From: an uncultured bacterium | Lineage (GTDB): Bacteria; Omnitrophota; Gorgyraeia; Duberdicusellales; 4484-171 | Length of the DNA stretch: 64,000 nucleotides | Reading direction: 5' to 3' | Assembly: GCA_913050175.1 (NCBI GenBank) | Contig: CAJXAF010000002.1 | Coordinates: 185-64,184, forward strand | Part shown: positions 37,036 to 51,502 of the stretch, one piece after another | Position numbering within the stretch: position 1 is the stretch's first letter | How the letters are laid out: each line of letters starts with the position of its first letter | Made by a program: the position numbers and the translations under genes | Notes under the pieces: model-generated | The model's database searches: none | Told to the model about the DNA's origin: nothing | The model's input: only the letters and a program-made list of their open reading frames with translations

Positions 37036-37091
37036 TATTTAATTTAAAGAATTATTATGAAAAATGCTCTTATTAAAACAAATCTCTTCAA

Positions 37092-37165
37092 CAGGCGAGG
37101 CAGGAGTTGAACCTGCAACCCCCGGTTTTGGAGACCGGTGCTCTAGCCAATTGAGCTACTCGCCT
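37092..37165 (-). tRNA. tRNA-Trp (anticodon CCA)
   Basis: Reverse complement AGGCGAGTAGCTCAATTGGCTAGAGCACCGGTCTCCAAAACCGGGGGTTGCAGGTTCAACTCCTGCCTCGCCT folds into a canonical cloverleaf (7-bp acceptor, GCTC/GAGC D-stem, anticodon loop CTCCAAA, T-loop TTCAACT). Conserved position between rpmG and secE. Confidence 0.9.
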
Positions 37166-37207
37166 AAAATTAATTTTAGGCTTAGGAACGATTACCAAAG
37201 AACTTAA

Positions 37208-37405: not shown

Positions 37406-37442
37406 TTTCCACATCGTGGTACTTATTATATACCTCTTATAA

Positions 37443-37515
<73 letters not shown>

Positions 37516-37699
37516 TTTCTCCCTGATTTTAAAGGGAAAAAGTTGACCATACGATGATACTATAAAAGTTTTTTTTGTCAAGAAAAAAAGAAAAATTTAT
37601 TGGCTGGTAAAAAATATGGCTTTTTTAGCCTTTTTTGAAAAAATGCTCAAAAAAGCAAATTTATTAAAGAAGAGGTATTTATCCTAAAAATGGCTAAAA

Positions 37700-40761: not shown

Positions 40762-41718
40762 CTAAAGCTTGATTTTATCGGTAAAATGATCGCCGACTTT
40801 GAGGTTATGGCCGCAAATAAATGCTTGAGCGGACATCTTTTTCTTACCTTGAGGCTTTAACTCTTTAATTTTTACTACGCCCAAAGAAGTAGCAACATAT
40901 ATGCCATGTTTATCAATTTTGACAACTACTCCCGGTGATTGGTTATTTTCTAAATCCAGAGCTTGAGCTGATAAAATCTTTAAGCCTGAACTCTTATAAT
41001 AGGTATAGGCTGAAGGCCAACCAGCTGTTGCCCGGATTAAATTTACTATTTTTTCAGCTGGCTTGCCCCAGGAGATTAAACCATCGCTTTTTTTAAGTTT
41101 ATGGGTAAGGGTTGCTTTCGACTCATCCTGAGGAATTAAAACAAAATCATCACTAGTAATTTTTTTGATAGCTTCAATTAAAATAGGTACTGACTCTTTA
41201 GCCAGGCGTTTACGTAAACTTAAAAAATTATCATTCTCACTTATGGTTGCTTCCTTTTGTAAAATTATATCGCCGGCGTCTACTCTGTCATTAATTTTAA
41301 AAATTGTAACCCCGGTCTTTTTATCGCCCTCCAGCAAAGTATATTCAATTGGTGAGGCACCGCGATAGTTAGGCAATAGGGAAGGATGTGCACAGAGGCT
41401 GAATATATTCGGGAAAGAAAGTATATTCGAAGGTATTATTTTGCCGTAGTCAGCAACAATAAAAAGATCAGCTTCTTTTTCTTTTAGGGTTAATTTAAAT
41501 TCTTCATCGGATAAAGATGCCGGCTTAAGGCATTCTATTTTCTTATCTGAGGCAAGATCGCTAACTTGAGTAGGAAAAACTTTTAGCCCCCTCCCTTTTG
41601 GCTTATCGGGCTTGGTTATGATTAAAAGCGGCCTATAGCCTTTTGAGCATAAACCATCGAGGATAATTTTAGAGAATTCTGACGAACCAAAATAAACAAA
41701 TTTAATTTTAGTTTTCAT
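40762..41718 (-). CDS. fmt: methionyl-tRNA formyltransferase
   Basis: 318 aa; N-terminal formyltransferase domain (IKFVYFGSSEFS...KPDKPKGRG; SLLPNYRGASPIE) and C-terminal Fmt domain. Confidence 0.9.
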   Translation of the reverse strand: MKTKIKFVYFGSSEFSKIILDGLCSKGYRPLLIITKPDKPKGRGLKVFPTQVSDLASDKKIECLKPASLSDEEFKLTLKEKEADLFIVADYGKIIPSNILSFPNIFSLCAHPSLLPNYRGASPIEYTLLEGDKKTGVTIFKINDRVDAGDIILQKEATISENDNFLSLRKRLAKESVPILIEAIKKITSDDFVLIPQDESKATLTHKLKKSDGLISWGKPAEKIVNLIRATAGWPSAYTYYKSSGLKILSAQALDLENNQSPGVVVKIDKHGIYVATSLGVVKIKELKPQGKKKMSAQAFICGHNLKVGDHFTDKIKL

Positions 41719-41726
41719 ATATTTAT

Positions 41727-43544
41727 TTAATACATCTGGATAGCTGCATAAGTTGATCGGCTACGTAAATTTTTTACCTGGTTCTTTATAATATTCCTTG
41801 AGTCTAAATTGCGCTCGGTCTTAATAATAATTGTATACCTGTACTTATCACGCAGTTTAAAAGGCTGCTCTTTAAATGGGCCGTGGGTTTGAGGAAACTC
41901 TCTTTGTAGTTTATTATATAAGTCTTGGCTCCTTTTAAAAAGAGTATTTTCGTTCTTTGATCTTAAGGTGATTTTAACTAAGAGCCCATAAGGCGGAAGT
42001 TTAAGCTTTTTCCTCAATTCTAATTCAAAGTTGTAGTAGTCTACCCATTCCTGGTTAAGGTATTGAAATAAATAATAAGAATTGTTTTGTGTAAAAAGAT
42101 ACAGAGACCCAGTACATAAAAGTGCCAGTTCTTTTAAATAAAGGTAAGCATTAAAAGTTGCCTCATAATCATTTCTCATTAAAGCTGCATCTATATCAAG
42201 AACAAAACAGGAGTCAAATTCTTTAGGTTCATAAAGATGGCTGAGTATCTTTGAGGTAGAAAGAACAAATTCAGATTTAGGATTTCTTTGCGAGAATGGA
42301 TCGATTTTAACTTCCGGAAACAGGCTCTTTAACATACCCTCCACACGCTGGATACCAAAACCTCTACTTTTCAAGTAACCGTTTTTGCAATTAGTACAAA
42401 CTGACGGAAGGCTAGTGACTTTATGACAATAAGGACAAGTTCCTTCATTTTTATTTATACCTGATTGAAGAAAGCCTGAGCAGTGGCTGCACTTATAAAC
42501 AAAACCACAATTAGAGCAGGACACCATCCTATTAAATCCAGTTTTATTCCAGATAATAACTGCCCTTTTCTTATCGGCGGCAGATTTGCGCAAAAGCTCT
42601 ATAGCGACCGGGGAAAGTATTTTTTTCTTTGTACTTGATTCAAGGCCAACAACATTTATCTTATCTTGCTGGCTTTTGTTCTCGGATAAAGAAAACTTAC
42701 CCTCTTTAATAAGACGATAAGCCGAAAGAGTCGGGTAATCAGAGGCAGCAATAAGATCTATCTTTTTAAAATCACTGAGTAAAATAGCTAGGTCAAAAAG
42801 GTTATGAAAAGGCTTTTCCTGCTGAAAATAGTAGGGACTATTTTCCTGCTCAATTATGAGCAGACCTAAATCCTCAGGGTAATAAAAAAGTGATACCCTT
42901 GTTCCCAAAATCAAAGTCTTTCTTCTTGAGGCCTTCCAGGAAGAAAATAGCTCTTTTTCTTTTTTTTGACTGTGGATAACTTGCAATTTATCCTTAAAAT
43001 CTTTTTCTAGAATCTCTTTGGCTTTGAGAAGGTAGGAAAGTTGGGGAAAACAAATTAAAACTGAAGATTCTTCTAATTTAGCCCTCAATAGAGTTTTATA
43101 CTTATCATAGCGTAAGTTAAAAGTATCGGCTTTTATGTAGGTTCGTTTTATTGGTTTGTTGTTTCCTATTAATTGGCAACTCTCTTCTATCTTATCTCCT
43201 CTGAGCGGATGAGGCTTTTTTAAGTATCCCGGCAACATCATAAACAGAAACTCGCCTTTAGCATAAGGATAATTCTTAGTTAACCTCTCACTAAAGAGAA
43301 TCTGCTCATCATTTAATACAGGATATGAATCAAGTTTTTTAACTATAGTCTTTAACTTTTTAATCTTTGAAGTCTTACTGGTTTTAATCACTAAGGCCAG
43401 TCTCTTTCGACCACGAAAATCAACGATTACTCTCATCCCTCTCTTTATATCAAAAGAGGGCGAAAACTTATAATCAAATTCTTTATCCAAAGCAATCGGT
43501 AAAACAACTTTTGCTATTTTTTCCTTATTCATGTTGGGTGTCAA
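41727..43544 (-). CDS. priA: primosomal protein N' (PriA) homolog lacking Walker A and with degenerate DExH box
   Basis: 605 aa; the N-terminal 3'-DNA-binding domain, the PriA-specific Cys-rich Zn-binding insert (CSNCGFVYKCSHCSGFL...CPYCHK...CTNCKNG) and the C-terminal domain are all present. No GxGKT/S P-loop exists anywhere, and the DEEH position reads IEQEN. Confidence 0.75.
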   Translation of the reverse strand: MTPNMNKEKIAKVVLPIALDKEFDYKFSPSFDIKRGMRVIVDFRGRKRLALVIKTSKTSKIKKLKTIVKKLDSYPVLNDEQILFSERLTKNYPYAKGEFLFMMLPGYLKKPHPLRGDKIEESCQLIGNNKPIKRTYIKADTFNLRYDKYKTLLRAKLEESSVLICFPQLSYLLKAKEILEKDFKDKLQVIHSQKKEKELFSSWKASRRKTLILGTRVSLFYYPEDLGLLIIEQENSPYYFQQEKPFHNLFDLAILLSDFKKIDLIAASDYPTLSAYRLIKEGKFSLSENKSQQDKINVVGLESSTKKKILSPVAIELLRKSAADKKRAVIIWNKTGFNRMVSCSNCGFVYKCSHCSGFLQSGINKNEGTCPYCHKVTSLPSVCTNCKNGYLKSRGFGIQRVEGMLKSLFPEVKIDPFSQRNPKSEFVLSTSKILSHLYEPKEFDSCFVLDIDAALMRNDYEATFNAYLYLKELALLCTGSLYLFTQNNSYYLFQYLNQEWVDYYNFELELRKKLKLPPYGLLVKITLRSKNENTLFKRSQDLYNKLQREFPQTHGPFKEQPFKLRDKYRYTIIIKTERNLDSRNIIKNQVKNLRSRSTYAAIQMY

Positions 43545-44592
43545 TTATATCAAAGACTAAATCCTTAAGCGGCTCTCTAATATCTTTTATTTCTAAAGGG
43601 TATTCTTTCTCTAAAAAACTTTTTTTATTGGCAAAATAATTAACTGCCTTCACTAATTCCTGACTACCCCTAACAAAACGGCCCAAACCGTGTTTTATTA
43701 CAATATTCATATTCTCTGTCTCCTGTCCGGGTATGTAGTGGGTAAAGACAAAAGCAATCCGCTTATAAATTCCTTCAAAAACTGTCAATCCTCCCGGCTT
43801 GGTAATTATAACAGAGCTTATTGATACCAACTCCCACATCTGTTCATAAAAAGAAAAAGTCCTGATATATGGTGAAGCCAGACTATCAAGATAGCTTTTT
43901 AACTTGGTATTTTTTCCATAAATAATTATCAAGTTGTAATCTTTAAGAAGTTGATTGATCGACTCCTTTAGATAGGGAAAATTTCCCCGGGATGAAGAAA
44001 CAAAAAGGATTGTCGGTCTATCTTTGAGAGAAAACTTCCTTCTAAGTTCGCTTGAATTTAGCTCTTTTAAAAACCCCTCTCTTAGGGCCGCGTAGCCACA
44101 AATGATTTTCTTAGGGTCAACACCCTGGGCTATTAAATCTTTTCTTGTAGCTTCAAAGGATGCAAAATAATAATCTACACTTTCATAGACCCACAAGGGG
44201 TGCACCCTTATATCAGTAACAATATTAATTATTTTAAATCCCAATTCTTTTTTAAGTTTGCGCATAAATCTGGGGCAGGAAAAATGGGTAGAAATAACTA
44301 TCTGTGGCTTTTGGCTGCGTAAGTGCTTTAAAAAAGGAGCCAGAAAAAATAACTGTAAGCCATGGACACCTGATGCAATAAAGTTTATTTTAGAGAGGTT
44401 AAAAATTGCCTGCCATATAAAAGGAGTCTTATCAGTTATAAATAGATAGCCTGATACATATAGCTTCTTTAATAAAGGGTGGGTAAAATCTAAAATGTCA
44501 CAAGTTGGAGCATTAAATACGCTGGCGGCTGCCTCGGCTGCTTTCTTATGGCCCTGACCAAAACTAGCATGTGTTATGAGTATTTTAGACAT
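43525..44592 (-). CDS. glycosyltransferase family 28, MGDG synthase / diacylglycerol glycosyltransferase (UgtP/YpfP)-like
   Basis: 355 aa; N-terminal ILITHASFGQGHKKAA (MGDG_synth domain) and C-terminal GT-B nucleotide-sugar domain (ITKPGGLTVFEG). Confidence 0.6.
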   Translation of the reverse strand: MSKILITHASFGQGHKKAAEAAASVFNAPTCDILDFTHPLLKKLYVSGYLFITDKTPFIWQAIFNLSKINFIASGVHGLQLFFLAPFLKHLRSQKPQIVISTHFSCPRFMRKLKKELGFKIINIVTDIRVHPLWVYESVDYYFASFEATRKDLIAQGVDPKKIICGYAALREGFLKELNSSELRRKFSLKDRPTILFVSSSRGNFPYLKESINQLLKDYNLIIIYGKNTKLKSYLDSLASPYIRTFSFYEQMWELVSISSVIITKPGGLTVFEGIYKRIAFVFTHYIPGQETENMNIVIKHGLGRFVRGSQELVKAVNYFANKKSFLEKEYPLEIKDIREPLKDLVFDIIDTQHE

Positions 44593-48720: not shown

Positions 48721-48793
48721 TTAAAAAACATGGACCGAAGCGGATTCAAACCGCCGACCTCCTCGTTGCGAACGAGGCGTTCTCCCAACTGAA
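48721..48793 (-). tRNA. tRNA-Ala (anticodon CGC)
   Basis: Reverse complement GGGCTGGTAGTTCAGTTGGGAGAACGCCTCGTTCGCAACGAGGAGGTCGGCGGTTTGAATCCGCTTCGGTCCA. The cloverleaf has a G3:U70 pair, A73 discriminator and anticodon loop TTCGCAA. The acceptor stem closes only with three G:U pairs, and the T-loop reads TTTGAAT (U at position 56). Confidence 0.7.
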
Positions 48794-48976
48794 CTACCAG
48801 CCCAAAAGCTTACAAAATAAAAATAAGGATTCCATCATATTTTGACAAAGATATCAAAACATGTCAAGAAAGACAAATAAACAGGCGTAAAAAATAAGGA
48901 TAGACTTCAAAAGGCAGGTTTTCAATAATCAAAAATATTCAAAACCTAAGCAAAACTCAATTGGATAATAAGTGGA

Positions 48977-50426: not shown

Positions 50427-50822
50427 TTAATCGTAAGTAGTTGCAATGCCAATTTTCTCTATGCCGACTTTTTTGCTAATATCCCAGACGCTAACAACAG
50501 TGCCTAAGCTGGCATCTCTATCTGCTTTGATAAAAATAGAATCAAATCCTTTGTTTTGCAAAACTTCCTCCACTTCCTTAATTGTTAGAGGCTTAGAATC
50601 TACATACATAATATCTTCGCTGGAAACAACTATCGTCAATGATCTTGAATCCAACTCCTCCGACGTCACAGCTTTAGGAAGTTTTACATTGATTCCCGGA
50701 ATTACAACAAAGCTAGATGTTAGCATAAAGAATACTAAAAGGAGAAAGACACAATCAATTAAGGGGACAATATCAATCTGATGCAGACCAGCTTCAACTT
50801 TTGCACTTTTTCTAAATTTCAT
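50427..50822 (-). CDS. biopolymer transport protein ExbD/TolR
   Basis: 131 aa; N-terminal TM with the conserved Asp (IDIVPLIDCVFLLLVFFM) and a periplasmic domain. Confidence 0.8.
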   Translation of the reverse strand: MKFRKSAKVEAGLHQIDIVPLIDCVFLLLVFFMLTSSFVVIPGINVKLPKAVTSEELDSRSLTIVVSSEDIMYVDSKPLTIKEVEEVLQNKGFDSIFIKADRDASLGTVVSVWDISKKVGIEKIGIATTYD

Positions 50823-50863: not shown

Positions 50864-51502
50864 TTATTGGTCTGCATACCTACTCTGAGGTAAGACTTCC
50901 AGCAACTCAGTTGCACCGCGCTCTGACTCTAAAGTAGCAAGATTGACTTTATGAACAAAAAAGTTATACATGATATAACTAGGTATAGCAACACAGAGGC
51001 CAGCAACTGTAGTAAGAAGCGCTACCCAAATACCGTCAGCTAAATCAGTAGGATTTACCATGCCAACCGTAACAGTCTTTTGGGCAATTGTACGAAAACA
51101 AATCACCAGTCCGACAACAGTACCAAGAAGACCGAGAAGTGGTGAAACATGAGAAATAGTGCTTAAGAAATTAAGATTTTTCTCAAGCTTTGGAACTTCA
51201 TATAGAGAAGCATTTTCCATAGATTCACGAATAACATCTTTTGTCTCTTCATAACGAATAAGGCCTGATTTTAAAATATTAGTAGCGTAGAAAGGGTTCT
51301 TCTCGCATAGATCAATTGCTTCGGTTATATTATTTTTGCGAACAAAATCAATGATTTGCGATATAACTGACTGAACGTTTACCTTAACACTCAAATAAAA
51401 AAATATTCTTTCAAAAATTATAGTGACAGAAAATACTGAACATAAAAAAATTGGCAGCATTAGCCACATTAATGAACTGTTCTTAGATATCAATTCCCAC
51501 AT
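50864..51502 (-). CDS. MotA/TolQ/ExbB proton-channel family protein
   Basis: 212 aa; three TM helices with the conserved C-terminal GLLGTVVGL...A motif of TolQ/ExbB. Confidence 0.8.
   Translation of the reverse strand: MWELISKNSSLMWLMLPIFLCSVFSVTIIFERIFFYLSVKVNVQSVISQIIDFVRKNNITEAIDLCEKNPFYATNILKSGLIRYEETKDVIRESMENASLYEVPKLEKNLNFLSTISHVSPLLGLLGTVVGLVICFRTIAQKTVTVGMVNPTDLADGIWVALLTTVAGLCVAIPSYIMYNFFVHKVNLATLESERGATELLEVLPQSRYADQ

Follow-up and report, generated by a model that had tools for sequence, protein, structure and literature searches.

The open reading frame at positions 41727-43544 encodes a full-length PriA homologue with a 3'-DNA-binding domain (3'BD), both RecA-like lobes, an eight-cysteine zinc region and a C-terminal domain (CTD). 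From its sequence we infer that this 605 aa protein is unable to bind or hydrolyse ATP, to translocate along DNA or to unwind it. The gene is probably an orthologous priA that has turned into a pseudohelicase, i.e. an ATP-independent platform for fork recognition and helicase loading. The state is clade-wide in Omnitrophota and under strong purifying selection; it is neither an artefact nor a decaying gene. Judged from the sequences compared, Omnitrophota would be the second natural PriA pseudohelicase lineage after Deinococcus. It appears to be independent and far more degenerate, and to comprise a large part of this phylum. In what follows, the window is the whole 64,000-nucleotide (64-kb) stretch of DNA that was analysed.

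Gene, domain architecture and fold

The priA ORF is located on the minus strand (Table 1). It lies exactly at the coordinates of the original prediction and, read from a TTG codon, comprises 605 aa with a single terminal stop and zero Ns, and the strings LQVIHSQ, LILGTRVSLFYYPEDLGLLIIEQENSPYYFQQE and NLRYDKY quoted in that prediction are all located in it. The 605 residues hold for the ORF, but the protein itself probably comprises 601 aa: ATG 43532 is the likelier start and matches the N-terminus of the family. This ATG overlaps the stop of the upstream gene at ATGAATAA.

Table 1. Features of the priA region in the window; residue numbers refer to the PriA protein.
Feature	Coordinates	Strand	Basis
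priA CDS, predicted pseudohelicase	41727..43544	-	ORF, Pfam, PDB matches, profile-profile alignment
3'-DNA-binding domain (PriA_3primeBD, PF17764), residues 12-105	43230..43511	-	Pfam, E 3.8e-20
Short low-confidence linker replacing the winged-helix domain, residues 106-130	43155..43229	-	alignments, AF2
RecA-like lobe 1 remnant, residues 131-300; fold kept, catalytic motifs gone	42645..43154	-	
Walker A relic A139-DTFNLRY146; three Gly lost	43107..43130	-	alignments, hhalign
Motif II relic E232-Q-E-N235 (family consensus EEEN), replaces DEEH	42840..42851	-	alignments
Aromatic-rich loop / motif IIa, Y239 FQQEKPFH, retained	42804..42830	-	alignments; function PMC5175346, PMC10175261
Cys-rich region (CRR), residues 340-390; 8 Cys, two Zn sites	42375..42527	-	alignments
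RecA-like lobe 2 remnant, residues 391-515 plus 301-339	42000..42374 plus 42528-42644	-	
PriA C-terminal domain (PriA_C, PF18074), residues 518-597	41754..41993	-	Pfam, E 2.1e-10
fmt (methionyl-tRNA formyltransferase), 9 nt downstream of priA	40762..41718	-	
MGDG-synthase-like glycosyltransferase, directly upstream, overlaps priA start	43525..44592	-	

Profile-profile alignment with hhalign matched the protein to the canonical PriA profile with a probability of 100% and E 2.5e-86 over 595 collinear columns, and phmmer matched solved PriA structures at E 5e-39 (4nl4). This bears out the proposed alignment to PriA along the full length. A Pfam scan of the 605 aa protein detected no DEAD, ResIII or Helicase_C domain. 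With TIGR00595 ('replication restart helicase PriA'), the protein scores 190.8 bits and misses the equivalog threshold of 230.35, and it stays far below the cut-offs of all NF0040xx models, because the helicase motifs are missing. Many family members are labelled 'hypothetical protein' by NCBI.

The AF2 model of the protein has a pLDDT of 90.5 and a pTM of 0.89. In a Foldseek search with this model, E. coli PriA 8fak_H was the best match (TM 0.85/0.81, RMSD 4.4 Å), followed by the E. coli winged-helix deletion 6DCR (TM 0.75). Since 8fak_H is fork-bound and CRR-rotated, and the RMSD to apo structures was 9-10 Å, a pseudohelicase 'locked' in a loading-competent pore state was considered. This idea was rejected: The AF2 model of P0282, a canonical PriA from the syntenic locus, also prefers 8fak_H (TM 0.88/0.91, RMSD 3.4 Å), and the preference is therefore not specific to the dead protein.

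Both the 3'BD and the Cys4/Cys4 zinc insert had been predicted to be kept, and both are. In the 3'BD, which matches PF17764, F23-D24-Y25 stand opposite the residues F16-D17-Y18 that belong to the 3'-end pocket in E. coli, where a role of D17 has been described (PMC5175346); this FDY triad is 100% conserved in the family. The zinc ligands C343, 346, 352, 355, 370, 373, 383 and 386 correspond to E. coli C436, 439, 445, 448, 463, 466, 476 and 479 (8/8), and all of them are invariant among 76 aligned sequences. In the aromatic-rich loop, Y239 and P245 are invariant, and Q241, E243 and K244 are at least 90% conserved.

Only 30 residues separate the 3'BD from the P-loop position compared to 119 in E. 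coli, and a winged-helix domain is lacking. In E. coli PriA, this domain touches the parental duplex. Given its absence, fork recognition by Omnitrophota PriA may differ in detail. Loss of the winged helix as a companion of ATPase loss was rejected, as the winged helix is already vestigial in the closest canonical PriAs, in which no more than 53-58 residues lie between 3'BD and P-loop.

Loss of the ATPase motifs

Neither [AG]xxxxGK[ST] nor GK[ST] occurs anywhere in the 605 aa protein, and no P-loop is encoded in the six frames of 41500-43800. This confirms that the GxGKT/S motif is absent, and it disposes of a frameshift hiding a Walker A segment, which had been named as a possible refutation. 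ADTFNLRY stands opposite E. coli GVTGSGKT, and NLRYDKY is indeed found at the aligned site. R145-Y146 were placed opposite K230-T231 in three independent alignments, A139-L144 opposite G224-G229 in two of the three. A 10-aa gap in the first alignment had suggested that the P-loop is deleted. This was rejected, because two better-sampled alignments and hhalign put ADTFNLRY opposite GVTGSGKT. As judged from these alignments, the P-loop is substituted rather than deleted.

Motif II, DEEH in canonical PriA, reads E232-Q233-E234-N235, in agreement with the predicted IEQEN. As the family reading is EEEN, this motif is only mildly altered. The weightiest losses concern motifs I, III, V and VI. In motif III, SAT is changed to SDY, and DYP appears in place of SAT as family-specific residues. 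Motif V is degenerate (GTQMxAKG to STSKILS). GRAGR of motif VI is gone in every member with a 5-aa deletion; E. coli R584 corresponds to L476, and R587 is deleted. In addition, ~15 aa are missing before motif V, which brings the deletions in lobe 2 to ~20 aa. The alignment suggested at the outset as a check on motifs I and II thus found both off consensus and no cryptic P-loop, and the degeneration proved to be wider, including motifs III, V and VI. The 120 closest relatives all lack a P-loop and GRxGR, as do the ~55 genome loci, and a helicase Pfam domain was detected in no member of the P-loop-less family. A proline at the position of E. coli W333 was discarded as a pseudohelicase signature, since most canonical non-proteobacterial PriAs also read PRYH.

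R145 and the acidic motif II probably survive as an internal structural contact and not as a catalytic site. As motif II is still acidic and R145 is invariant where the Walker lysine would be, the old site may have some ligand-binding role.

Conservation across Omnitrophota and decay in place

P-loop-less PriA is represented by >150 protein clusters and by ~55 species-level Omnitrophota genomes including three complete chromosomes (CP070807, CP070684, CP070797). The ~600-aa architecture is repeated in >50 independent assemblies. The family alignment has 29 invariant columns, among them FDY, R145 and the 8 Cys, and dN/dS is 0.08-0.2 in every domain, dead lobes included (12 pairs). The loss of helicase motifs had originally been framed for a single organism. 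The loss itself stands, but it is not peculiar to this organism and is common to a whole clade within Omnitrophota.

The P-loop-less proteins form one clade, which is sister to canonical PriAs from the matching locus. The comparison of loci covered the window and, at related loci, at most 10 kb of flanking DNA. The gene order rsmE-miaB-like-rlu-(GT2)-HAD-MGDG-priA-fmt-acyP-(MPE)-ligA is conserved in ~50 loci. In basal relatives, the MGDG...priA...fmt locus encodes canonical PriAs (P0282, P0281), and at the same locus, P0288 is partly decayed with GALSAGRS and DEEN. Because basal relatives have canonical or intermediate PriA at this very position, the Omnitrophota priA is an orthologue that decayed in place. 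In canonical PriA genes of basal relatives, Armatimonadia and Margulisbacteria, fmt is located 1-4 kb downstream. The ancestral priA locus is recognizable by its conserved linkage to fmt. A series leads from the canonical form via GALSAGRS/DEEN and DVSGNARW/DQEGH to ADxFxxRY/EEEN at one locus. Such decay intermediates could be used to map the PriA surfaces needed for ATP-independent function.

Proposed role and comparison with known PriA proteins

In PriA, the aromatic-rich loop is inserted into the fork junction as a wedge, and the 3'BD binds the 3' terminus of the newly made leading strand (PMC5175346, PMC10175261). Omnitrophota PriA has kept the PriA fold and what is required to recognize an abandoned fork: the 3'BD including the 3'-end pocket, the aromatic-rich loop as junction wedge, the CRR with two zinc sites and the CTD, with the two RecA-like lobes as a structural frame. 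The nucleotide site is dismantled: P-loop, SAT and arginine fingers are absent, and E(E/Q)EN is found instead of DEEH. The pseudohelicase is predicted to bind forks or D-loops on which the lagging-strand template is already exposed as a single strand, and to recruit the replicative helicase DnaB, together with whatever loader or adaptor the lineage uses. None of the genes for DnaB, DciA, DnaC, SSB, PriB and DnaT was found in the 64-kb window. PriB and DnaT would be expected in some Proteobacteria only.

A more speculative and rather unlikely variant is that the old pocket has been rebuilt. F142, R145-Y146, E232/E234 and DYP might then form a new site for a partner or a small ligand that switches PriA without ATP. 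In that case, Omnitrophota would restart replication with a novel adaptor and omit the helicase step, and the decay series would be a stepwise record of an essential motor protein turning into a pure scaffold.

Among the rival explanations, it is conceivable that a PriA-derived protein still binds forks or D-loops but no longer reloads the replisome. Its task could be to cap forks or protect them, to prevent inappropriate loading or recombination, or to serve as an adaptor in a different DNA transaction. The disappearance of all catalytic motifs, the ~20 aa deleted from lobe 2 and the lack of a known partner gene nearby in the 64-kb window are in line with such a repurposing. The same holds for the new family-specific conserved residues F142, R145-Y146 and DYP, the latter replacing SAT, which suggest a remodelled surface under its own selection. 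However, the elements for fork recognition are retained and are the most conserved parts, namely the FDY pocket together with the aromatic-rich loop, CRR and CTD. Furthermore, the gene is still at the ancestral priA locus without any sign of replacement, and an ATPase-dead PriA is sufficient for restart in E. coli and has been proposed to be so in Deinococcus. Repurposing is therefore considered improbable.

Very unlikely is a specialised paralogue that acts as an accessory scaffold beside a canonical active PriA encoded elsewhere in the genome. Such a gene could lie beyond the visible DNA, which comprises 64 kb of the own genome and at most 10 kb of flanks in relatives. The window itself does not code for any canonical P-loop of the PriA type (G[VI]T[GA]SGKT). 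In different lineages, the syntenic locus holds the canonical, the intermediate or the degenerate form and never two of them side by side, a pattern of decay of a single orthologue. One metagenome-assembled genome labelled Omnitrophota (L063) carries a canonical PriA, which would fit a second gene. However, this PriA is 70-74% identical to PriAs from Margulisiibacteriota and Saganbacteria, so the label is probably wrong. An Omnitrophota genome keeping canonical PriA was, in the case of L063, rejected on these grounds.

A cryptic ATPase that uses R145-Y146 together with the acidic E232/E234 as a non-canonical site is scarcely credible. It is true that R145 is 100% conserved at the position of the Walker lysine and that E232 and E234 at the Walker B positions are 95% conserved. 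However, the three P-loop glycines are replaced, E. coli G227 by F142, which is a Phe in 95% of the family, and SAT, motif V and both arginines of motif VI are lost or deleted. No member has a helicase Pfam domain. Moreover, K230R alone abolishes the ATPase activity of E. coli PriA, and Deinococcus PriA with the same Lys-to-Arg exchange is inactive. An assembly or sequencing error or a functionless decaying gene, to which the TIGR00595 shortfall and the many 'hypothetical protein' calls might point, is effectively refuted by the intact ORF without Ns or missing motifs in an alternative frame, the recurrence of the architecture in >50 assemblies and three closed chromosomes, the low dN/dS and the confident AF2 model.

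The ATP-independent platform for fork recognition and helicase loading remains the preferred reading. The Omnitrophota case would strengthen the view that the indispensable role of PriA is fork recognition and helicase recruitment and not unwinding. As annotation pipelines call many members 'hypothetical', replication restart would look absent in these genomes, though it is probably present.

A literature search on Omnitrophota PriA or other PriA pseudohelicases found nothing beyond Deinococcus. Actinobacterial PriAs have also been described as devoid of helicase domains, for which the name given to the PRK14873 models in NCBIfam, 'primosome assembly protein PriA', is only a hint. The helicase-dead Deinococcus PriA cited with the original prediction is a real precedent: Lopper et al. 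(2015, PMC4504706) showed that PriA of D. radiodurans is devoid of ATPase and helicase activity but still binds ssDNA, forks and DnaB, which is the behaviour predicted for Omnitrophota PriA. As in Omnitrophota, the Deinococcus-Thermus protein is a PriA orthologue with motifs I and II off consensus and the Walker lysine replaced by Arg, and this state is kept lineage-wide. Deinococcus-Thermus PriAs retain a recognisable GxxxxGRT-type P-loop (PMC4504706). Compared by published description, decay in Omnitrophota has gone further: The P-loop glycines, SAT, motif V and GRAGR are gone, and lobe 2 has suffered deletions. Since the sister PriAs at the same Omnitrophota locus are canonical, the loss in Omnitrophota is probably separate from that in Deinococcus. 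With two probably separate losses, the suggestion of a 'recurrent evolutionary state' appears justified.

With the PriA structures from E. coli and Klebsiella (4NL4, 6DGD, 8FAK), Omnitrophota PriA shares the order of domains, i.e. 3'BD, lobe 1, lobe 2 with the Cys-rich insert and CTD. It also shares with E. coli PriA the predicted fold (TM 0.85 to 8fak_H), the FDY pocket, QQE as the core of its aromatic-rich loop and the 8 zinc-binding Cys. In contrast to E. coli PriA, it has neither a winged-helix domain nor functional motifs I, III, V and VI. E. coli D438 and H483, onto which PriB docks, are replaced by N345 and Y390, as expected for a lineage without PriB. The E. coli winged-helix deletion (6DCR) also lacks this domain but is engineered and has an intact ATPase core.

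The predicted role would parallel both the role proposed for D. radiodurans PriA and that of E. coli PriA K230R and K230A in the PriA-PriB pathway. K230R, encoded by priA300, carries the same Lys-to-Arg exchange at Walker A as Omnitrophota PriA. Both E. coli variants are ATPase-dead, yet they assemble the primosome and support restart and DnaB loading via PriA-PriB with PriB and DnaT (PMC5778457, PMC10175261). By analogy, priA300 and K230A are the best functional counterparts of Omnitrophota PriA. They are, however, engineered single substitutions in an intact helicase and are defective without PriB, whereas Omnitrophota PriA has lost the entire site.

Identity of the protein and loss of the ATPase site

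The product of the priA-like ORF is PriA. Pfam assigned residues 12-105 to the 3'-DNA-binding domain of PriA (3'BD, E 3.8e-20) and residues 518-597 to the PriA C-terminal domain (CTD, E 2.1e-10). The helicase domains of canonical PriAs (DEAD, ResIII, Helicase_C) were not matched. All NCBIfam PriA equivalogs match below their cut-offs (TIGR00595 with 190.8 vs. 230.35 bits). Two blocks, query residues 3-114 (chain 12-125) and 160-547 (chain 261-676), align with solved PriA structures from Klebsiella and E. coli (E values of 5e-39 to 4e-34). In a profile-profile comparison (hhalign), 76 relatives aligned with 63 canonical PriAs over 595 collinear columns (probability 100%, E 2.5e-86). An AlphaFold2 model based on the family alignment (mean pLDDT 90.5, pTM 0.89) is weak only at about residues 111-130. 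Its top structural matches are all PriA (8fak_H with TM 0.85/0.81, then 6dcr, 6dgd, 4nl4 and 4nl8), with other SF2 proteins (Mfd, DEAD-box, RecG) ranked far below. The Pfam domains, the hhalign result and the fold bear out the original prediction of PriA homology along the length. It had also located the ORF exactly, and all peptide strings it quoted were found in the translation.

The real priA start is most likely the ATG at 43532, four codons inside the listed TTG. This ATG overlaps just the stop codon (ATGAATAA) of the glycosyltransferase gene lying upstream and matches the N-terminus MxKIAKV common to all relatives, which argues for a probable product of 601 aa, translationally coupled to the upstream gene. 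The TTG start would overlap that gene by 20 nt (43525-43544). Residues are counted here on the 605-aa translation.

A P-loop (Walker A, motif I) is absent, as predicted: neither [AG]xxxxGK[ST] nor GK[ST] was found in the whole protein or in the six reading frames of 41500-43800. Therefore, the objection that a frameshift might hide it falls. In three independent alignments, R145-Y146 stand opposite E. coli K230-T231. In the two better-sampled of these and in hhalign, A139-DTFNLRY-146 lies directly opposite G224-VTGSGKT-231. The P-loop is therefore not deleted but so heavily substituted that it can no longer be recognised. Each of its three glycines is replaced, G227 by a Phe that is 95% conserved. 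The DExH box (motif II) is likewise altered, with E232-Q-E-N235 (family consensus EEEN) opposite D320-E-E-H323. Since only motifs I and II had been listed originally, degeneration is considerably wider than noted there. In motif III, S356-A-T358 corresponds to S268-D-Y270, and in motif V, GTQMLAKG to STSKILS. In motif VI, R584 corresponds to L476 and R587 lies inside a 5-aa deletion. The lobe 2 segment (E. coli 500-579) comprises 64-68 aa in the family, against 79 aa in each of the canonical PriAs examined.

Retained elements and model conformation

Both DNA- and Zn-binding regions are kept, as had been claimed: F23-D24-Y25, equivalent to E. coli F16-D17-Y18, is invariant across the family, and so are eight of eight zinc-ligand cysteines. 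E. coli D17 is implicated in binding the nascent leading strand's 3' end (PMC5175346). The aromatic-rich loop after motif II is one of the best conserved segments, with Y239 and P245 invariant and Q241, E243 and K244 at least 90% conserved. The Pro that aligns with E. coli W333 was rejected as a feature of pseudohelicases (helicase-dead PriAs), as PRYH is found in most canonical non-proteobacterial PriAs. The PriB-docking residues D438 and H483 of E. coli are replaced by N345 and Y390. Such a loss is expected outside PriB-bearing Proteobacteria.

From the 3'BD end to the P-loop position, E. coli PriA has 119 residues and the query 30, a low-confidence linker in the model. The spacing is already 53-58 residues in the nearest canonical relatives and 44-72 in other short canonical PriAs. 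Therefore, the reduction of the winged-helix domain is unrelated to ATPase loss, and a tie between the two was rejected.

The query model fits fork-bound 8fak, in which the Cys-rich region (CRR) is rotated, far better than apo PriA. A frozen loading-competent conformation was rejected, because the control model of the canonical PriA P0282 (pLDDT 90.8; 8fak_H with TM 0.88/0.91, RMSD 3.4 A) shows the same preference, which is thus not pseudohelicase-specific and carries no weight. Dead and canonical Omnitrophota-type PriAs are both modelled in an 8FAK-like rather than an apo crystal conformation; 8FAK, released in 2023, presumably postdates the AlphaFold2 training data.

Distribution and history of the locus

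A protein search yielded 189 relatives. The best 120 of them comprise about 595-625 aa (or are fragments), are 39-53% identical to the query, carry only 3'BD and CTD as Pfam domains and are labelled Candidatus Omnitrophota/Omnitrophica wherever a name is given; many are named 'hypothetical protein' at NCBI. All of these 120 lack a P-loop at the expected position. Scanning one genome per species, 68 loci were found. P-loop and GRxGR are both missing from all proteins of L002-L055 and L067; among these loci are those of three closed Omnitrophota chromosomes (CP070807, CP070684, CP070797) and that of 'Ca. Susulua stagnicola'. The loci L056-L066 from other phyla are canonical (GVTGSGKT, GRAGR). 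Nei-Gojobori dN/dS of twelve pairs (75-88% amino-acid identity) amounts to 0.08-0.2 overall, and the values for the dead RecA-like lobes do not exceed those for 3'BD, CRR or CTD. Hence, the P-loop-less priA is functional, and its ex-motor domains are constrained as structure. At L041 (1165-2968), the priA frame stops early (489 aa) and the tblastn match runs on, reflecting either a sequencing frameshift or a true pseudogene in one lineage.

Essentially all of the about 50 P-loop-less loci, the deep branches L052 and L067 included, share the order rsmE, miaB-like, rlu, (GT2), HAD phosphatase, MGDG-synthase-like GT, priA, fmt, acylphosphatase, (metallophosphoesterase), ligA. In the window, fmt directly follows priA (40762-43544) without def (peptide deformylase) in between; in the canonical loci examined it lies 1-4 kb downstream, with space for an intervening gene. 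A search seeded with the L067 protein revealed further groups. P0241-P0277 are a second P-loop-less Omnitrophota clade (620-650 aa) with acidic residues and His in motif II (EEEEH, DEEDH, DQEGH) and P-loop vestiges, e.g. DVSGNARW. P0288, one of the isolated intermediates, has the near-P-loop GALSAGRS and the motif II DEEN. The closest canonical proteins (P0278, P0280-P0286; 660-700 aa) contain GIT[GA]SGKT, DEEH and GRAGR. Three contexts appear decisive for an orthologue of priA instead of a paralogue: HAD-epimerase-MGDG-UDG-priA (canonical P0282), MGDG...priA-TPR-fmt (canonical P0281) and GT2-HAD-MGDG-priA-fmt...secE-nusG-L11-L1-L10-L12-rpoB (P0288), the last with the macro-synteny of the window. 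In a rough NJ tree, all P-loop-less proteins form one clade, sister to the syntenic canonical proteins. The simplest history would be that the resident priA was inactivated once and then eroded progressively. Nearly all members have Arg as the K230 equivalent, with Trp or Tyr as the next residue. P0251 (DLSEKGKW) keeps Lys at the old Walker lysine, and L052 has Cys there; together with P0288, they would be the most informative proteins for timing the loss of ATP binding.

Several public MAG labels look wrong (L063, L009, L004-L006 and others). L063 (DATJPS010000062.1) is the only Omnitrophota-labelled MAG with a canonical PriA in the genome scan. This label is probably erroneous, because its PriA is 70-74% identical to those of Margulisiibacteriota and Saganbacteria. 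The full Omnitrophota priA synteny block is present in L009 (JAIWAR010000002.1), labelled 'Methanosarcinales archaeon', and in many 'uncultured Planctomycetia' contigs.

Apart from the three tRNA genes in the table, Rfam and ARAGORN matched nothing in the window. By its position, the 185-aa ORF could encode a divergent TonB/TolA-like partner.

Features located in the window
Feature	Coordinates	Strand	Remarks
priA ORF	41727-43544	minus	605 aa from TTG; one terminal stop; 0 ambiguous bases
ORF, 185 aa	49794-50351		no Pfam match; immediately upstream of ExbD
ExbD	50427-50822		
ExbB/TolQ	50864-51502		
tRNA Trp-CCA	37091-37166		
tRNA Thr-GGT	37442-37516		
tRNA Ala-CGC	48730-48804		

Proposed mechanism and known PriA systems

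The protein combines the PriA fold and intact fork-recognition elements with the lack of a nucleotide site. By analogy with E. coli K230R/K230A and D. radiodurans PriA, it is probably a structure-specific platform that works independently of ATP, marks forks or D-loops that have been abandoned and would recruit the replicative helicase. E. coli PriA K230R (priA300) and K230A have no ATPase, helicase or translocase activity, yet in vivo they are close to wild type and in vitro, together with PriB and DnaT, they load DnaB; the PriA-PriC route and forks whose lagging arm is duplex are the only cases that require helicase activity (PMC5778457, PMC10175261, PMC13594977). If the Omnitrophota protein is ATP-independent, restart would occur only from substrates with lagging-strand ssDNA already exposed, or another helicase would expose it. 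Within the 64-kb window, which holds housekeeping genes only, DnaB, DciA, DnaC, SSB, PriB and DnaT were not found.

All credible genes of the window (1-64000) are on the minus strand, among them ribosomal protein operons, rpoB/rpoC, EF-Tu/EF-G, ligA, priA, uvrA and nadE, and GC skew is negative in 32 of 32 two-kb bins. Together, this indicates one replichore with fully co-oriented genes, which would minimise head-on replication-transcription conflicts. Speculatively, co-orientation might be linked to tolerance of a helicase-dead PriA.

The original prediction had referred to a helicase-dead PriA in Deinococcus and to a possibly recurrent state. The former is documented: D. radiodurans PriA has the same K-to-R exchange as E. 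coli K230R, lacks ATPase and helicase activity, binds ssDNA (Kd ~215 nM) as well as forks (~109 nM), with evidence also for physical contact with DnaB (PMC4504706). Recurrence is supported as well, as the Omnitrophota clade, sister to syntenic canonical PriAs, appears to be an instance independent of Deinococcus-Thermus. Nothing further was found in the literature on Omnitrophota PriA or on PriA pseudohelicases beyond Deinococcus-Thermus. Here, a pseudohelicase PriA extends across a large clade within an uncultivated phylum, with intermediates kept at the same locus. It is of the same kind as the already described Deinococcus-Thermus PriA; compared by description, the Omnitrophota protein is more extreme, with motifs I, III, V and VI erased and deletions in lobe 2.
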